The translations under genes were made by a program, and so were the position numbers. A stretch of DNA of 64,000 nucleotides, taken from NCBI GenBank assembly GCA_963737265.1, contig CAVTRY010000014.1, forward strand, positions 128,001 to 192,000, in the 5' to 3' direction. Below, piece after piece: positions 6,485 through 35,537 of this stretch; positions within the stretch are counted from its first letter, which is position 1; every line of letters begins with the position of its first letter. The notes beneath the pieces were generated by a model. That model ran no database searches. It worked only from the letters and a program-made list of their open reading frames with translations, and was not told where the DNA came from. Source of the stretch: an uncultured delta proteobacterium (GTDB lineage: Bacteria > Myxococcota_A > Polyangia > Fen-1088).

Positions 6485-6582
6485 CGGAACCAGGGATCGG
6501 CCGCATTGGCGAGACCAGCCCTGAGGTGTAGCTTTAGGTCAGAAGCAAATTACGGAATCTGGGGACCGAAAAGGAGTACGAC

Positions 6583-6987
6583 ATGACAACCGCAGGCTCA
6601 ATGGTCAAGGGTGGTTTCTACCTCAACCGAGACAAATGGGACATCCTCACGGTCGGCGGCAAGGAAGGCGTGCTGCCCGGCGCGGCGGGCGAGCGCTATC
6701 TGCGGCTCCCAGTGCTGGCGGTGGTGTTGTTGGCGCCGCTGCTCGGCGGTCTTTTCGTGGTGTTTCTTCCTTTCATCGGCTTCGCGCTCGTAGTGCAACA
6801 CCTGGCTAGGCTGTCGCTGTCGGGCATGAAGCGCGCCGGTCGTGGTCTGGTCTTCGTCATCACGCCGGCCTGGCGCCCGGGCGAAGCCTACTTTGCCGGC
6901 AAGGAACACGAGCAAGAGCACGCCAAGGATCCCGCCGCATCCAAGGTAGACGGAGCGATCGACAACGACAAGAACCCCCAAAAGTAG
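6583..6987 (+). CDS. Small hypothetical membrane protein
   Basis: Strong AAGGAG RBS; long hydrophobic hairpin (LPVLAVVLLAPLLGGLFVVFLPFIGF); WRPGEAYF motif. Confidence 0.8.
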   Translation: MTTAGSMVKGGFYLNRDKWDILTVGGKEGVLPGAAGERYLRLPVLAVVLLAPLLGGLFVVFLPFIGFALVVQHLARLSLSGMKRAGRGLVFVITPAWRPGEAYFAGKEHEQEHAKDPAASKVDGAIDNDKNPQK

Positions 6988-22923: not shown

Positions 22924-23062
22924 GGGTTTGCCCGGACATTCGCGTCATCGACTGAATTACCGGGCAGCTAAAGGAATTGGCGGGCAACCGCGCCGCAACT
23001 AGCGAATGGGGCGGCGTCGCGTTACCATGGCGACGACTCTCAACCCCACCGTGGAGGCTCGC

Positions 23063-23254
23063 ATGAATTCCGACACGCAAATGATCGTCCTTGGCGTCGA
23101 AGCGGTCCTTGGCATCGTCATCCTGTTCGCTCAGGTCAAGCTGTTCTCCATCGCGTCCACATTGACCGATTCCAAGACGAAGCTGACCGCGATTAGCTCC
23201 ACCTTGGACGCGATCCTTCAGGAAATGCACAAGAACCGGGACAAGCAAGCGTAG
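23063..23254 (+). CDS. Small single-TM hypothetical protein (transposon cargo)
   Basis: GGAGG RBS before ATG 23063; hydrophobic helix then short coiled coil. Confidence 0.6.
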   Translation: MNSDTQMIVLGVEAVLGIVILFAQVKLFSIASTLTDSKTKLTAISSTLDAILQEMHKNRDKQA

Positions 23255-23263
23255 GATGAATCC

Positions 23264-23431
23264 ATGCGAAAGACTCCCTGGCATTCGACCAAGAAGGGCA
23301 CGAGGCACTACCACAACAACGGAAAGTGCGGTCCTGGGGGCGAGATACCAGACCGCAATCGAGCGACGGGACCTGGCACAGGGTTGACCCTTTGCGAAGA
23401 CTGCAAGAAGCTCAACAGAGATGGCAAGTAG
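23264..23431 (+). CDS. 55-aa His/Cys-motif small protein, putative metal-binding (cargo; not in ORF track)
   Basis: Hand translation MRKTPWHSTKKGTRHYHNNGKCGPGGEIPDRNRATGPGTGLTLCEDCKKLNRDGK; follows the previous gene by 9 nt. Confidence 0.65.
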   Translation: MRKTPWHSTKKGTRHYHNNGKCGPGGEIPDRNRATGPGTGLTLCEDCKKLNRDGK

Positions 23432-23435
23432 GAAG

Positions 23436-23828
23436 CTAGGCACGAAGCTTTCCTCCTCTCCACTTCGCTCGCTGGTCATGCTTCGGATCTTCGCGTAGAG
23501 CATCGGTCCTGACGAATTCGATTTCCCACTGCGGCCCGACAAGCTCTAGATCGAGGACATCCCAAACCCTGCAAAGACGGGCTACTTTCAGTCCATTCTG
23601 CTGTGCCACCGCGACCGCGCGCAGTCCTTCATAGTGTTCCCCGCTGAACCATACGGTGGGATCCCTTCGTGGGTGAGTATCGCCACCCTCGCAGGATTCG
23701 ATGGTTTCAATCCCGCCTTCTTGCAGAAGACGCACGGCCCTAGCAATGCCCTGATCGATAGGACGCGCGCCGCGACCTTCGGGAGGGGTTTTCCGCTCCC
23801 GCGTTATTGCCGAGCGCGATCCTCTCAT
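23436..23828 (-). CDS. Hypothetical protein with ID.GI..AV..L..GIET.ESCEGG..H motif (cargo)
   Basis: ATGA-coupled to the upstream HTH gene; globular composition. Confidence 0.65.
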   Translation of the reverse strand: MRGSRSAITRERKTPPEGRGARPIDQGIARAVRLLQEGGIETIESCEGGDTHPRRDPTVWFSGEHYEGLRAVAVAQQNGLKVARLCRVWDVLDLELVGPQWEIEFVRTDALREDPKHDQRAKWRGGKLRA

Positions 23829-24109
23829 GGCCTGACACCTACTTCTGGCCCACGTCCACAATGTGGGCATGTTCCGGCCAGAGGGTACCTCCCAGACACC
23901 ACGTCATCGAATAGCACGCACGCCAGCCTGGATACCTGGAAGGCCAGATTGACCGACGCTGGGTTGACGCCCTTGTCGATGTTTTTCATGGTGCTCAACT
24001 CGAAGCCAAGCGCCTTGGCGAGCATCTTCCACGTGCCCACTCGAATGCGCAGGAAGCGCAGAGCGGCCATGACGTTCGCCCGCTGCTCCTTGCTCAGTCC
24101 GCGTCTCAC
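23825..24109 (-). CDS. XRE-like HTH regulator with C-terminal CPHCG zinc knuckle
   Basis: WKMLAKALGFELSTMKNI HTH-like segment; GTGA coupling to the transposase stop. Confidence 0.75.
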   Translation of the reverse strand: MRRGLSKEQRANVMAALRFLRIRVGTWKMLAKALGFELSTMKNIDKGVNPASVNLAFQVSRLACVLFDDVVSGRYPLAGTCPHCGRGPEVGVRP

Positions 24110-25341
24110 GCTGTCACCTTCCTAAGAAAGCTTGGCTCTATGCCGAGCTTGTGCATGGCCATGACCAAGCACGACAGATTGTGACAGAGCACCTTGCACA
24201 AGATCTCGTTAACCTGTGCGGTGAAAGTCTTGGAGCGCACGGACTGGCCAAACTTGCGCTTGACCGCTGAAAAGGTGCTTTCGATGGCGCTGCGCTTGGA
24301 GTAGGCCGCGAGAAAATCCTCGTGCTTAAACATGAAGACCGCGCGCATCTTGCGCCACGCTGGCGATCCATCGTCCTGGCTGTTGATCTTGAAAGGTATG
24401 AATGGCGAAGCGCCGGCGGCTTCGATGGCGGCTAGATTCTCGTGCCCGAGATACGCCTTGTCCGCCGAGACTTCTGCCATGCCTACGAAGCGTTGCTTCG
24501 TAGCTTCCACCAAGCCGGGGAGTTGGGGAGAGTCCGCGCCGCTGCTGTCCGTAACCCGGACGGCGGTGATGATGTTTGTCGATGTTCCGATCATCGCGTG
24601 CGCCTTCAGCCAGGTATGCTCCTTCATCTCGCGTCCGTACTTCTGATCATACCAGCGACGGCAAATGGCAGTGCCAAAACCAGTCGAGTCCACCGCAAAG
24701 GCAGTCTCGACGGCGGCCAGGGGCTCCGCGCTTTGTTCTATCAGCTTCGTCAGAAGCTCGGTCACCTCGACCTTGTCGAAGTAGTCGATGATCGTGTTGT
24801 AGCGTGGCACCTTGGTCATGTGGCCAGCTTCGCCAGACGCTTCCAGGTCTGTCGTCGCGCGACGGGCGGACATCGCCACGTAGACCTTCATTACCATCGC
24901 AAAGACGGCGTCAGAGAGAGGCACTGGCTTGCGACCACGGCCCGCATGCGCCGGAGTCTTGATGCCGTCGCAGAGCCCACGCAGAAGGTGCTCAACCGTC
25001 TCCTTCTCCTCGCACTGGGCGGTGTTGTAGGCGTTCCAGTCGCGATCTTGCGGCGCCCGGCTGTAGCTGATGGACTGGGTAACAACGTCTCCCTTTTCAG
25101 ACTTCGCAACCGTCTGTGCGAATTCCACGGCCCACTGGTGCTTGCAGCGTATGCGGCGAAGCTCGAAATCGGGGCATGAGCAGGTGCCTTCCGCCACGTT
25201 GACGAGGTAGCCGCCCGATGGCTGGGTTTGCGATGGCACAAGCCAAGTCACGCCCGCCACGCACTTGATCCGGTTGTCATGCGAAAGCATCCTGCCGCGC
25301 TCTTGCCGAAGATCCGTTGTGCTCGCCTGCGTTGTCGTCAT
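24106..25341 (-). CDS. Transposase with N-terminal SWIM zinc finger and DDE_Tnp_1-like (IS4/IS5 superfamily) catalytic domain
   Basis: CSCPDF..CKH (SWIM); AVDSTGF, SADKAY, YSKRSAIESTFSAVKRKFG catalytic/YREK-like motifs. Confidence 0.9.
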   Translation of the reverse strand: MTTTQASTTDLRQERGRMLSHDNRIKCVAGVTWLVPSQTQPSGGYLVNVAEGTCSCPDFELRRIRCKHQWAVEFAQTVAKSEKGDVVTQSISYSRAPQDRDWNAYNTAQCEEKETVEHLLRGLCDGIKTPAHAGRGRKPVPLSDAVFAMVMKVYVAMSARRATTDLEASGEAGHMTKVPRYNTIIDYFDKVEVTELLTKLIEQSAEPLAAVETAFAVDSTGFGTAICRRWYDQKYGREMKEHTWLKAHAMIGTSTNIITAVRVTDSSGADSPQLPGLVEATKQRFVGMAEVSADKAYLGHENLAAIEAAGASPFIPFKINSQDDGSPAWRKMRAVFMFKHEDFLAAYSKRSAIESTFSAVKRKFGQSVRSKTFTAQVNEILCKVLCHNLSCLVMAMHKLGIEPSFLRKVTA

Positions 25342-25421
25342 GATTATATGTATACATTAGCGCGCGTGAAGATGCAAGGTAAATGTGTTGACAATAACAT
25401 GACGCCTGGTATCCTCAAATC
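25342..25421. promoter_or_regulatory. Divergent promoters of the transposase and RHH genes, with a palindromic operator
   Basis: + strand TTGACA(25388)-16 bp-TATCCT(25410) with TGn extension; - strand TTGCAT-17 bp-TATACA; palindrome ATGTATACAT at 25348-25357. Confidence 0.6.
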
Positions 25422-25604
25422 ATGAGCCCAGCACCACGCAAAAAGGCGTCAGAGCGACGCGAGACGCCACTCCAGATCCGTCTGACCGCAGAGGAAAAGA
25501 AGATGTTCACTGAGGCGGCCGACCGCGACCACCTATCAATATCGGCGTGGCTACGCCTGGCGGGCCTTCACGCCATCGAGAACCGACACAAGCTGAAGGG
25601 ATGA
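25422..25604 (+). CDS. Ribbon-helix-helix (DUF1778/MobC-like) DNA-binding protein
   Basis: LQIRLTAEEKKMFTEAADRDHLSISAWLR. Confidence 0.8.
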   Translation: MSPAPRKKASERRETPLQIRLTAEEKKMFTEAADRDHLSISAWLRLAGLHAIENRHKLKG

Positions 25605-25606
25605 TC

Positions 25607-26332
25607 CTACTCGTCATCGCCCTGACTGGGTGTCAGGCTGATTCCAAAATCACGAACGTCCTTACGCATCTCGACGATGACCTCGCTAATGTCTTCAATG
25701 TTTGAGTAGCGAGGCTTAGGCGATCCAACGATCTTGCCGCGTTTGTTCACATCCAATCTGGGTTTGCCCAGAATCTTCACTAGTTCGTCGAGCACCTGAC
25801 TCCGGAAGGCAGCGTTGTTCTTCAGTTCCTCAGTGTTAGCCCCAACGATGCCGCGTAGAGAACTCAACGAAGCCGAGAAATCCTCACGAGCCCCGCTCAC
25901 CCGAGCGGATTGAGTTTGATCGTACTGCTCCATGGCTTTCAAAAGCGAGGCAGAAACAGCCGCGAGTTGATCCGCAACCGGCGTTTCAAAGCCTGACAGC
26001 TTCTTCTCAAGACCCGCCAACCTGTTTTCATACTGCAACCCACGCCGCGCGTTTGCTTGAGTTTGTAGCGCGAAGTGAAGAACCAACATTGCCCACAGCG
26101 CGAAAGCAAGATTCAACAGAATAGCTCCGAGTCTTGCCTCGACGGATAGAAGCTGAGGCAATCCAAGAAAGAAGATGCACCCCAGGACGGTCACAACCAG
26201 CACACCGGCAATGATCTCTGCCGTCCTCGGGTTAAGACGTGGCATGACCCGCTCCGCCAAGCGCAAAAGACCAGCGATTGCTACAAACTCGATGAGCGCC
26301 CCTATGGCGGCTCCCAGAATGATGTCTCGCAT
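25607..26332 (-). CDS. Hypothetical 3-TM protein with C-terminal coiled coil (cargo)
   Basis: Three hydrophobic helices; visibly lower GC than the flanking genes; TAGCAT 8 nt upstream of the ATG. Confidence 0.65.
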   Translation of the reverse strand: MRDIILGAAIGALIEFVAIAGLLRLAERVMPRLNPRTAEIIAGVLVVTVLGCIFFLGLPQLLSVEARLGAILLNLAFALWAMLVLHFALQTQANARRGLQYENRLAGLEKKLSGFETPVADQLAAVSASLLKAMEQYDQTQSARVSGAREDFSASLSSLRGIVGANTEELKNNAAFRSQVLDELVKILGKPRLDVNKRGKIVGSPKPRYSNIEDISEVIVEMRKDVRDFGISLTPSQGDDE

Positions 26333-26473
26333 GGCGCGCGATGCTACCACCGCCGCCCCCGCGCCGTAAGCACGCCGCAGCGCCCGCGTGGCCCATCATG
26401 TCACCGGCCCCTTTCGGGAATTGCCGGGCAGCCGGGGGAATTCTCGGGCAGGTGAGAATTGGCGGGCAAGCCC

Positions 26474-26717
26474 CCAAACGTCCGTGATGGGAACCCTGAA
26501 AGGGTTCCCAAACCCTCCCGCGCTCTGGCTTCGGCGGGCAAAGCCCGCCTCCGCCAAACGTCCGTGATGGGAACCCTGAAAGGGTTCCCAAACCCTCCCG
26601 CGCTCTGGCTTCGGCGGGCAAAGCCCGCCTCCGCCAAACGTCCGTGATGGGAACCCTGAAAGGGTTCCCAAACCCTCCCGCGCTCTGGCTTCGGCGGGCA
26701 AAGCCCGCCTCCGCCAA
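26474..26717. repeat. Right part of the 80-bp palindromic tandem-repeat array (3 units)
   Basis: TCCGTGATGG at 26481, 26561 and 26641; identical units with no spacers. Confidence 0.95.
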
Positions 26718-26812
26718 CGCGGTCGCCCGAAAAGGTACTGTCTAGAGCGCCCGGCAGTTTTCCCGTCGGGCGTTTTTCTAGCGCCCTCCGCGGTGGCGGT
26801 TACAATGGAAGC

Positions 26813-27982: not shown

Positions 27983-29818
27983 CTAGATCGGATAGTCAGG
28001 CGGTCCCACGGAGCCGCCCATGGTGTGGCCTTCGCGCCACAGGGCTTCTTCCATGGCTGCAAGCAACGGCCCAATGGTTTGTCGGTCGAGCGCGCTCACC
28101 GCCAAAACGCGGCCGCTGTCTTCGAGGATGGCTCTCTCCTCGGTCTGTAGGCGGTCGGCCTTGTTGTAGACCAGCAGGCGCGGCGTCTCGGCCAGATTCA
28201 AATCGCCGAGGATGCGCTCTACCGCGGTGATGTGGGCATCGCGATCCGGATCCGATGCATCGACCAGGTGGAGCAAGAGATCGGCGTTGTCCAGCTCCTC
28301 CAGCGTGGCGCGGAACGCTTGCGCGAGATCCTTGGGCAGATCGCGTATAAATCCCACGGTGTCGGCGAGAATCAACTCTCGCTCGCGCGGGAAGCGCAGC
28401 CGGCGGGTGGTCGGATCGAGGGTGGCGAAGAGCTTGTCTTCCACCAAGACGTCGCTGCCGGTGAGACTGTTCAGCAGGGTGGACTTGCCAGCGTTGGTGT
28501 AGCCCACGATGGCGACGACAGGCAGTCCGTGGCCTTCCCGCGCAGAGCGCCGGTTCGCGCGCTGGCGGCGGGTTTGCTCGATGTCTTTTTCCAAGCGATG
28601 CAACCGCTCGCGCGCACGGCGGCGGCCGATTTCTAGCTTGGTCTCGCCCGGGCCGCGCCCGCCAATGCCTCCCACCAGGCGACTCATCATGGTGTTTTCT
28701 TCCTGCAGTCGCGGCAGGCGATAGCGCAATTGCGCCAGCTCGACTTGCAGCTTGGCGTCCCGGCTGCGCGCGCGCTGGGCGAAGATGTCGAGAATCAGAA
28801 TGGTTCGATCGATCACCTTGAGATCGGTAAACGACGCGATGGCATGGGCCTGGCCCGGCGACAGATCAGGATCGAAAATCAGCACGCTGGCATCGAACTG
28901 CATGGCGCGCACAAGCACGTCCTCGAGCTTGCCGCGACCGATGAGGTAGCGCGGATCGGGTTCGGGCCGTCGCTGCACCGCCACGTCCACCACCAGAATG
29001 CCGGCGGTTCGGCACAGCTCGCGCAGCTCGTGTACGCGGCTATTGTCTTGGGAACCCTGGGCGGGTTCCCAAACCTTCCCGCGAGGCTCCGCTGCCGGCA
29101 AAGCCGGCAGGCTCCGCACGCGACTATTGTCTTGGGAACCCTGGGCGGGTTCCCAAACCTTCCCGCGAGGCTCCGCTGCCGGCAAAGCCGGCAGGCTCCG
29201 CACGCGACTATCGCCGCGCGATTTGCCGATCTCCGCCACGACCAGCAGGGCGCGCTCGGCCGAGCGGGTCGCGCGCGTGGAGGGCAGCACGCGCTCGAAT
29301 TCTTCTTCCAGCGCGGCGATGATCTCGGCGGGATCGACGGGCGCGCGGTGGAACGGCGCGGGTGGCAGTGAGACCCAGGGCGATTTGCCTTCGCGGGGTG
29401 GGACCAGGTGGGCAAGGTGAAGATCGGCGGGCCGGCCTTCGTGATTGACGCCCACGGCGGCGACGAGATCCAGGCGCAAGAGAGCGAGATCGACGAGATC
29501 GTCGCGCGACAGGGTTTCGTTGCGCAAGTGGGTGTGCACCAGGCGTAGCCCGCGAAAGCGGCCGTGACCAGCGCGGAGGCGTCCGACCTCGGGCAGAACG
29601 ATGCGCGAGGCGTCGCCCACGAAGACATGCTCGATATCGCCCCGGCGTGAGATGAGCACGCCGACTTGGCGCCCGATGCTTCGCGATACCTCGCACAAGT
29701 AGGCGCCAAGCTCGGCCGAGACGACATCGTTGGGCGCGACCCGTCGGCGGTACACGCGTTCGAGGGCCGACAGCTCCGAGGGCTTGAGGCCCGCGCGATT
29801 TCCCGTCACCTCGTGCAT
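27983..29818 (-). CDS. hflX: Ribosome-splitting GTPase HflX (long N-terminal form) with an in-frame repeat insertion
   Basis: [43 protein letters not shown]. Confidence 0.96.
29034..29211. repeat. Two identical 84-bp palindromic units inserted in-frame in hflX
   Basis: TATTGTCTTGGGAACCC at 29041 and 29125; encodes [28 protein letters not shown] twice; related to the 80-bp unit. Confidence 0.92.
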
Positions 29819-29867
29819 GCGGGCTCAAAAGTGTTGATAGGGAAACCCTGGGAGGGTTTCCCCAATT

Positions 29868-29999
29868 CCGCGACAAGCGCAGCGACGTCGCGGAAGGCGG
29901 CAGAAAGAGGGGCCTTTCCAGGAGGGACGCGCCACCCAGTTGGAGCGATGAATGGTGGTCGTAAACGTCGTTGTCGTCGTGGCCCTGGCCGTGGCCGAC
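29868..29999. repeat. Dispersed ~130-bp intergenic repeat, copy 1
   Basis: Near-identical to 35392-35524; preceded by a GGGAAACCCT-GGG-AGGGTTTCCC hairpin (~29840-29862). Confidence 0.88.
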
Positions 30000-35391: not shown

Positions 35392-35524
35392 CCGCGATCA
35401 GCGCAGCGACGTCGCGGAAGGCGGCAGAAAAAGGGCGCCTTCCCAGGATGGACGCGCCACCCAGTTGGAGCGCTGAATGGTGGTCGTAGACGTCGTCGTC
35501 GTCGTGGCCCTGGCCGTGGCCGAC
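35392..35524. repeat. Dispersed ~130-bp intergenic repeat, copy 2
   Basis: Near-identical to 29868-29999; lies just past the secA stop. Confidence 0.88.
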
Positions 35525-35537
35525 TGAAGCCGGCGAT

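Follow-up and report, generated by a model that had tools for sequence, protein, structure and literature searches.

The 64-kb stretch of DNA analysed here (the window) contains an hflX gene whose product consists of an N-terminal extension of ~185 aa, an N-domain, a linker and a G-domain, with the GTPase motifs, including NKAD, intact (Table 1). The extension (29267-29818, minus strand) is kept in all relatives seen and has no Pfam match. Within the gene lies a tandem repeat with an 84-bp period and 2.1 copies (29034-29211, TRF). The sequence-only reading of this DNA had described it as two identical 84-bp units that lie in frame inside the ORF and add 56 aa, and the TRF result, the ORF and the TIGR03156 match confirm this. 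The identity of the units holds in the register 29040-29207, whereas in the register of that reading they differ at 1 of 84 positions. Unit 1 is made up, in this order, of hairpin 1 with a GGA/GGA internal loop, a spacer, hairpin 2 and an 11-nt tail. Its predicted folding is unusually stable (z = -4.2; none of 200 shuffles equally stable), and five of the six reading frames of the tandem unit are open. No Rfam family matched anywhere in the 64-kb window.

Table 1. The hflX repeat and related elements in the window
Feature	Position	Strand	Remarks
hflX, 611-aa ORF	27983..29818	-	432 bits against TIGR03156 HflX (cut-off 217)
Repeat unit 1, 84 bp with the CGCGT tag taken as its beginning, 28 codons	29123..29206	-	
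Repeat unit 2, a second 84-bp copy arranged head-to-tail with unit 1	29039..29122	-	
Host Ser-Arg-Val codons, third junction repeat, presumed target	29034..29041	-	7/8 bases as in the element's 5' end
Intergenic array, three 80-bp units, sister subfamily	26474..26722	-	two-hairpin fold as in the hflX unit, with which it shares 78% identity
Further 1.5 units of that 80-bp subfamily, directly behind the groEL stop codon	22798..22923	-	78% over 72 nt
Sequence remotely related to hairpin 2, immediately before the hflX start	29832..29886	-	27 bits, E ~7e-4 (rough)

The insert had been placed in a probable loop of the N-domain, and both structural approaches agree with this. When a relative without the insert (P0036) was aligned to solved HflX chains, the site fell between the first strand and the first helix of the N-domain, i.e. 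in the β1–α1 loop. The model of residues 185-611 (mean pLDDT 71) likewise has a confidently modelled strand and helix on the two sides of 56 residues with pLDDT below 50. The full-length model was of such low quality (mean pLDDT 46) that it revealed no fold for the extension, and it was not used. The same loop is variable in length and often of low complexity in L003-L008, six Polyangia-type loci that are less closely related, so it appears to tolerate insertions and deletions naturally. Since an 84-bp unit preserves the frame and falls into this tolerant loop, its peptide is most likely translated, forming a disordered segment of nearly neutral effect.

A dispersed two-hairpin repeat family

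The hflX unit is akin to the intergenic 80-bp array, as had been proposed: the two are 78% identical over 72 nt (E ~1e-9 within the window). It had also been pointed out that 84 is a multiple of 3 and 80 is not. This is correct, but it compares one coding with one intergenic unit and therefore carries little weight alone. Altogether, the window contains three element loci and one distant copy. To look beyond it, we scanned GTDB and obtained at least nine hflX loci (L001-L009), titled Polyangia, Myxococcales or unclassified MAGs; copies of the element are present in five of these at least nine fetched loci, one of them decayed. A covariance model built from six copies revealed more of them in L003 and L005 in addition to the distant one upstream of hflX, with E-values that are rough. 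The eight DNA copies, which come from six sites, all begin with CGCGT, pairing with an internal CGCG, and all end with the second hairpin; most also have an inner stem together with a purine-rich internal loop of the form GGA/GGA or GGA/GAA. At eight of the 25 consensus pairs both partners vary, which is only suggestive since the alignment comprises six sequences. The proposal of a dispersed palindromic family thus stands, with intergenic copies in the window, further copies in relatives and a shared fold.

The two 80-bp-repeat blocks enclose a 3.5-kb island of lower GC content (22924-26473; 58% versus 64%) that occupies the gap between groEL and pilZ and codes for a SWIM+DDE IS5-like transposase and contains two unassigned ORFs. 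A short motif recurs, with some variation and in the same orientation, at its two inner ends (~22955-22990 and 26417-26472). The corresponding gap in L001 is ~156 bp long and has no repeat. A second repeat family is represented at 29868-29999 and 35392-35529 (93% identity over 138 bp). The former copy lies just upstream of hflX, adjoining the distant hairpin; at this position L001 has only ~14 bp between the aligned blocks.

In L002, a copy of the element (6511-6597) lies in frame within the C-terminal linker of an ECF sigma gene. It is read in another frame than the hflX copy, and the orthologues of the window and L001 are empty. The creation of peptide segments in frame, originally proposed for hflX, therefore extends to at least one other gene. 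Among the sigma relatives listed, 4 of 120 carry the element (P0160-P0162 included), in a ranking that favours filled rows, and P0163-P0166 may contain its remnants. The hflX site is far more often filled than the sigma site, the same ranking bias being present in both lists.

The insert peptide, which had been suggested as a proteome-wide query, was searched for among 1.84 billion representatives. This produced 35 matches, 28 of which we read as element-derived, most of these apparently being spurious ORFs over intergenic arrays; such arrays explain many spurious short ORFs in this lineage. The other seven (P0137, P0141, P0147 and P0155-P0158) were judged to be chance or low-complexity matches. 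By their sequences, P0142 and P0127 look like real proteins carrying the element and are candidate in-frame insertions. P0142 has three units before a membrane helix and a weak FecR match below the cut-off. In P0127 (99 aa) the unit lies between two Cys motifs, with Arg-Val on both sides as at the hflX junction. P0135 starts with N-terminal sequence of an NAD-dependent DNA ligase, continues into the element and stops shortly afterwards; this may be a disruptive insertion. Searches of the insert against plasmids and GenBank phages gave no match.

Copy number and age of the hflX units

To compare HflX relatives, we searched with residues 120-330 of the window protein and used the best 120 of 798 matches. 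As the query contains the insert, the ranking favours filled proteins. Seven rows were dropped for their length or a missing anchor (P0033 and P0079, filled; P0037, P0068, P0081, P0100 and P0108, empty). In the remaining 113 of these best 120 matches, 0, 1, 2, 3 and 5 units are found at one codon in 74, 26, 10, 2 and 1 rows, respectively. The insert is thus not private to the window genome: 39 of the 113 relatives, scattered over the tree, have one to five units at the same codon. Its status as an insertion is nevertheless clear, since the unit is missing from the other 74 and from all seven more distant loci inspected at the DNA level (L003-L009). The alignment of orthologues, which had been proposed as a check, identifies the segment as an insert. 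All 14 outgroup rows are empty, the ESRV motif is common to them and the ingroup empties, and SRVH is kept in empty alleles, those of the outgroup included. The number of units differs even between close relatives, as in a coding VNTR; P0020, P0006 and P0004, otherwise near-identical HflX proteins, have one, two and three. With zero to five units at one spot, the loop appears to gain and lose selfish DNA repeatedly.

This range of copy numbers also bears on the possibility that the tandem duplication is an assembly artefact. The two units of the window are identical and were seen in the assembly alone, yet independent assemblies have two, three or five units, some of them non-identical (L002), and we find such an artefact scarcely credible.

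In 11 of the 39 filled rows a further insert is nested in the unit; five of the 11 form one clade. These in-frame inserts (P0003, P0010-P0013, P0017, P0026, P0029, P0034, P0040 and P0041) are 16-51 aa long, apparently sit at the hairpins and, by their sequences, are probably other repeat families. Asn/Asp-rich scars that look like deletion remnants were flagged in 15 of the 74 empty loops; two are probably false, leaving ~13.

We then mapped the filled and empty states onto a tree of the 113 rows that was built without the loop region, counting changes by a quick method. The label changes 24 times, with 10 changes forced by starred branches, which contradict a single clade of filled alleles. 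Shuffled labels change 32 times on average, so there is some clustering of filled rows. On the same tree a gains-only scenario requires 27 events and a single gain is followed by 31 losses; gains are not distinguishable from losses.

Two of the DNA loci provide a view of the age of the units. L002 has two units in hflX and L001 has one decayed unit (71% identity). Compared with each other, units of the window and of L002 show 4-6 differences over 75 nt (92–95% identical) and retain 11-12 of 13 four-fold sites, compared with 62% of 157 such sites in the hflX flanks. Neutral vertical inheritance of the unit is rejected against the flanking four-fold sites (binomial P of 5e-11 and 3e-9), the same test against all flank sites giving P of 0.002 and 0.02; it concerns one genome pair and treats sites as independent. 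Between the two L002 units there are 6 differences in 75 nt. In hflX, the units of the window and of L002 are closer to each other than to any further copy in the 64 kb and 11 kb seen of their own genomes, which counts against re-invasion from dispersed copies.

One explanation for these data is that hflX received the element in a single ancestral insertion, which was then passed on by vertical descent, removed on many occasions through slippage between the direct repeats and refreshed by occasional gene conversion with dispersed copies. A weak vertical signal, which speaks against pure re-invasion, is indeed present, as unit peptides correlate with the tree (Mantel rho 0.26, p 0.047; 24 rows, after taking out eight without a plain unit and seven near-duplicates) and, by inspection, unit tail variants cluster by clade. 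Moreover, the scarred empty loops show that losses occur, and if a deletion were precise, the loop would read SESRVH again, as in the ancestor. However, this history needs all 31 losses and has to invoke conversion for the 92-95% unit identity seen against 62% at neutral flank sites. We consider it rather unlikely. Alternatively, filled hflX alleles, unit included, may have been exchanged between co-occurring lineages by homologous recombination. Such exchange would account for near-identical units on distant branches, such as those of P0001 and P0020, which differ at 1 of 25 aa at a tree distance of 0.48. The window and L002 flanks, however, differ at the codons immediately beside both junctions, and although this is one DNA pair, we regard allele exchange as improbable.

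The decayed unit of L001 resides in an intact hflX that is 98% conserved downstream of it, which indicates that no strong selection holds units once they are inserted and that the peptide is tolerated. The decay weighs against the view that the insert is a domesticated, selected feature, either as a hairpin in the mRNA that adjusts hflX translation or as a peptide with a function of its own, the number of units being the dial. Strong hairpins and the conservation of the unit sequence across lineages might be expected under domestication. But that conservation is at the DNA level, silent sites included; the unit is missing from 60 of the 99 ingroup rows (best 120 of 798 matches), the element also occurs between genes and in another frame in the sigma gene, and the insert is predicted to be disordered. 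Taken together, this makes domestication very improbable.

Junctions and proposed mechanism

A 10-bp repeat, ACGCG[G/A]CTAT, had been reported at all three hflX junctions and is found there. It does not amount to a general target-site duplication: the repeat is absent at the other five sites, hflX being the only place where it occurs, and as a family-wide duplication it was rejected. Specifically, the element's eight left-end bases recur within 22 nt of the right end at hflX with 7/8 matches in both the window and L002, a level that controls reach at 0.6-1.3% of positions. At 5/5 other sites the match is at chance level (a post-hoc comparison of seven sites in all). The simplest reading of these sequences is that the Ser-Arg-Val codons of hflX mimic the element tag. 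The junctions of P0035 fit this mimicry, because the left one has the tag-type SRV and the right one the RIH variant of its clade's host sequence, as in the empty P0094, P0096, P0098 and P0102. Retention of this clade-specific variant is a further point against one ancestral insertion.

The reading that we prefer, with a probability of about 0.6, is that a non-autonomous element re-invades or overwrites the hflX site and that slippage expands or deletes it. It builds on a dispersed family with a conserved fold, on in-frame copies in two genes and on copy-number change, decay and nesting; the mobility of the family is inferred from its distribution. A miniature element of ~75-84 bp with two hairpins would spread in the Polyangia-type lineage by means of an enzyme encoded elsewhere. 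As the Ser-Arg-Val codons of hflX resemble its 5' end, insertion there would leave direct repeats on both sides, and copies of the live family could thereby enter or overwrite the site again and again. Head-to-tail amplification and deletion would then result from slippage between these direct repeats. The 84-bp unit would preserve the frame and land in the indel-tolerant β1–α1 loop, so that its translation would be near-neutral.

As for the mobilising enzyme, a single-strand, hairpin-recognising (HUH/Y1-type) enzyme would fit best by analogy with IS608 and REPINs, at about even odds, owing to the shape of the element and to the absence of both terminal inverted repeats and a target duplication. 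A scan of 44 ORFs of the window and 27 of the fetched loci found no HUH transposase. The sole transposase encountered is the IS5-like DDE protein (24106-25341), which is not favoured as the mobiliser because the element has neither terminal inverted repeats nor a target duplication.

A more specific idea, possible but doubtful, is that self-similarity guides the element to its target: the CGCG arm inside the unit, which pairs with the unit's own tag, would pair equally with the Ser-Arg-Val codons of hflX, allowing many independent invasions. If so, the hflX loop would be a sequence-programmed safe harbour across the clade, and each insertion would recreate the target, giving rise to arrays, nested elements and excision scars.

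Whatever the enzyme, alleles that are empty, young, decayed, tandem, nested or scarred occur at a single housekeeping codon in dozens of related genomes. The question of a hotspot versus an old insertion can therefore be tested on whole genomes, and co-occurrence offers a way to look for the mobilising enzyme.

Comparison with known systems

The hflX insert is an RPE-like coding insertion derived from an apparently undescribed myxobacterial two-hairpin repeat family. The literature covered, which included few subscription journals, has nothing on this family, either for HflX with palindromic in-frame inserts or for such repeats in Myxococcota. In contrast to classical MITEs, the ends of the element are not complementary, and a flank repeat is present at hflX only. 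In cyanobacteria, Elhai and colleagues reportedly described in 2008 a class of very small mobile repeats that invade coding regions as well as one another. They are said to be about 20-30 nt long; compared by description, the hflX unit is different, having ~75-84 nt and two hairpins.

REPINs with their RAYTs and IS200/IS605 elements are closer in several respects. According to the parts of the literature consulted, they have hairpin-defined ends, form tandem clusters, insert into existing copies, excise precisely and recognise their target through a guide near the hairpin foot (PMC3116915, PMC5027513). Hairpin-defined ends, tandem clusters and insertion into existing copies are features that the hflX element shares. 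Unlike a REPIN, however, its unit is not composed of two inverted copies of one REP but of two different hairpins in direct orientation. A Y1 transposase, as in REPIN/RAYT systems, is absent from the 44 window and 27 locus ORFs, and guide-target pairing of the IS200/IS605 kind is only hypothesised for the hflX element.

GTAG/CGTC REPs provide another precedent for tagged palindromes in coding sequences. In the main text searched, they are described within ORFs singly, as dimers or in clusters, adding 20-82 aa, and at about the same recB site in two Xanthomonas species, with no myxobacterial family among them (Di Nocera et al. 2013, PMC3733652). The likeness lies in tagged palindromes that occupy ORFs either singly or clustered. 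As described there, CGTC-REPs have an unpaired terminal CGTC tag, a single 8-9 bp stem, a 4-5 nt loop and a CCA tail. The hflX element departs from this structure; its CGCGT tag is base-paired, each unit has two different hairpins, and copies are arranged head-to-tail.

The analogy originally drawn was to Rickettsia palindromic elements (RPEs), and it holds for the way the element works but not for its identity. In the sections consulted, RPEs are dispersed palindromic repeats that enter housekeeping genes in frame at exposed sites (PMC10969869; PMC3767692), RPE positions are described as conserved among spotted-fever-group orthologues, and both the route by which such elements enter genes and, for RPE-4/6/7, the choice between a hotspot and a single ancestral insertion are left open (PMC3767692). 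Like RPE-1 to -7, the hflX element is a dispersed palindromic repeat within the range of ~70-150 bp, is inserted in frame in unrelated protein genes (hflX and the ECF sigma gene, each with empty orthologues) and occupies an exposed, tolerant protein site, the β1–α1 loop. The differences concern the host (Rickettsiaceae there; Polyangia/Myxococcales MAGs, a different phylum, here), the ATGAC motif versus a GC-rich two-hairpin unit with a CGCGT tag, and the orthologous hflX site itself, which varies from 0 to 5 tandem units and takes up nested inserts. In-frame palindromic inserts are therefore already known, whereas a copy-number-variable hotspot in hflX, a ribosome-rescue gene, is new. It is a clear case of selfish DNA adding 28-140 residues to, and removing them from, a conserved ribosome-splitting GTPase, and what it adds to the known systems is a visible sequence reason for this codon being a hotspot.
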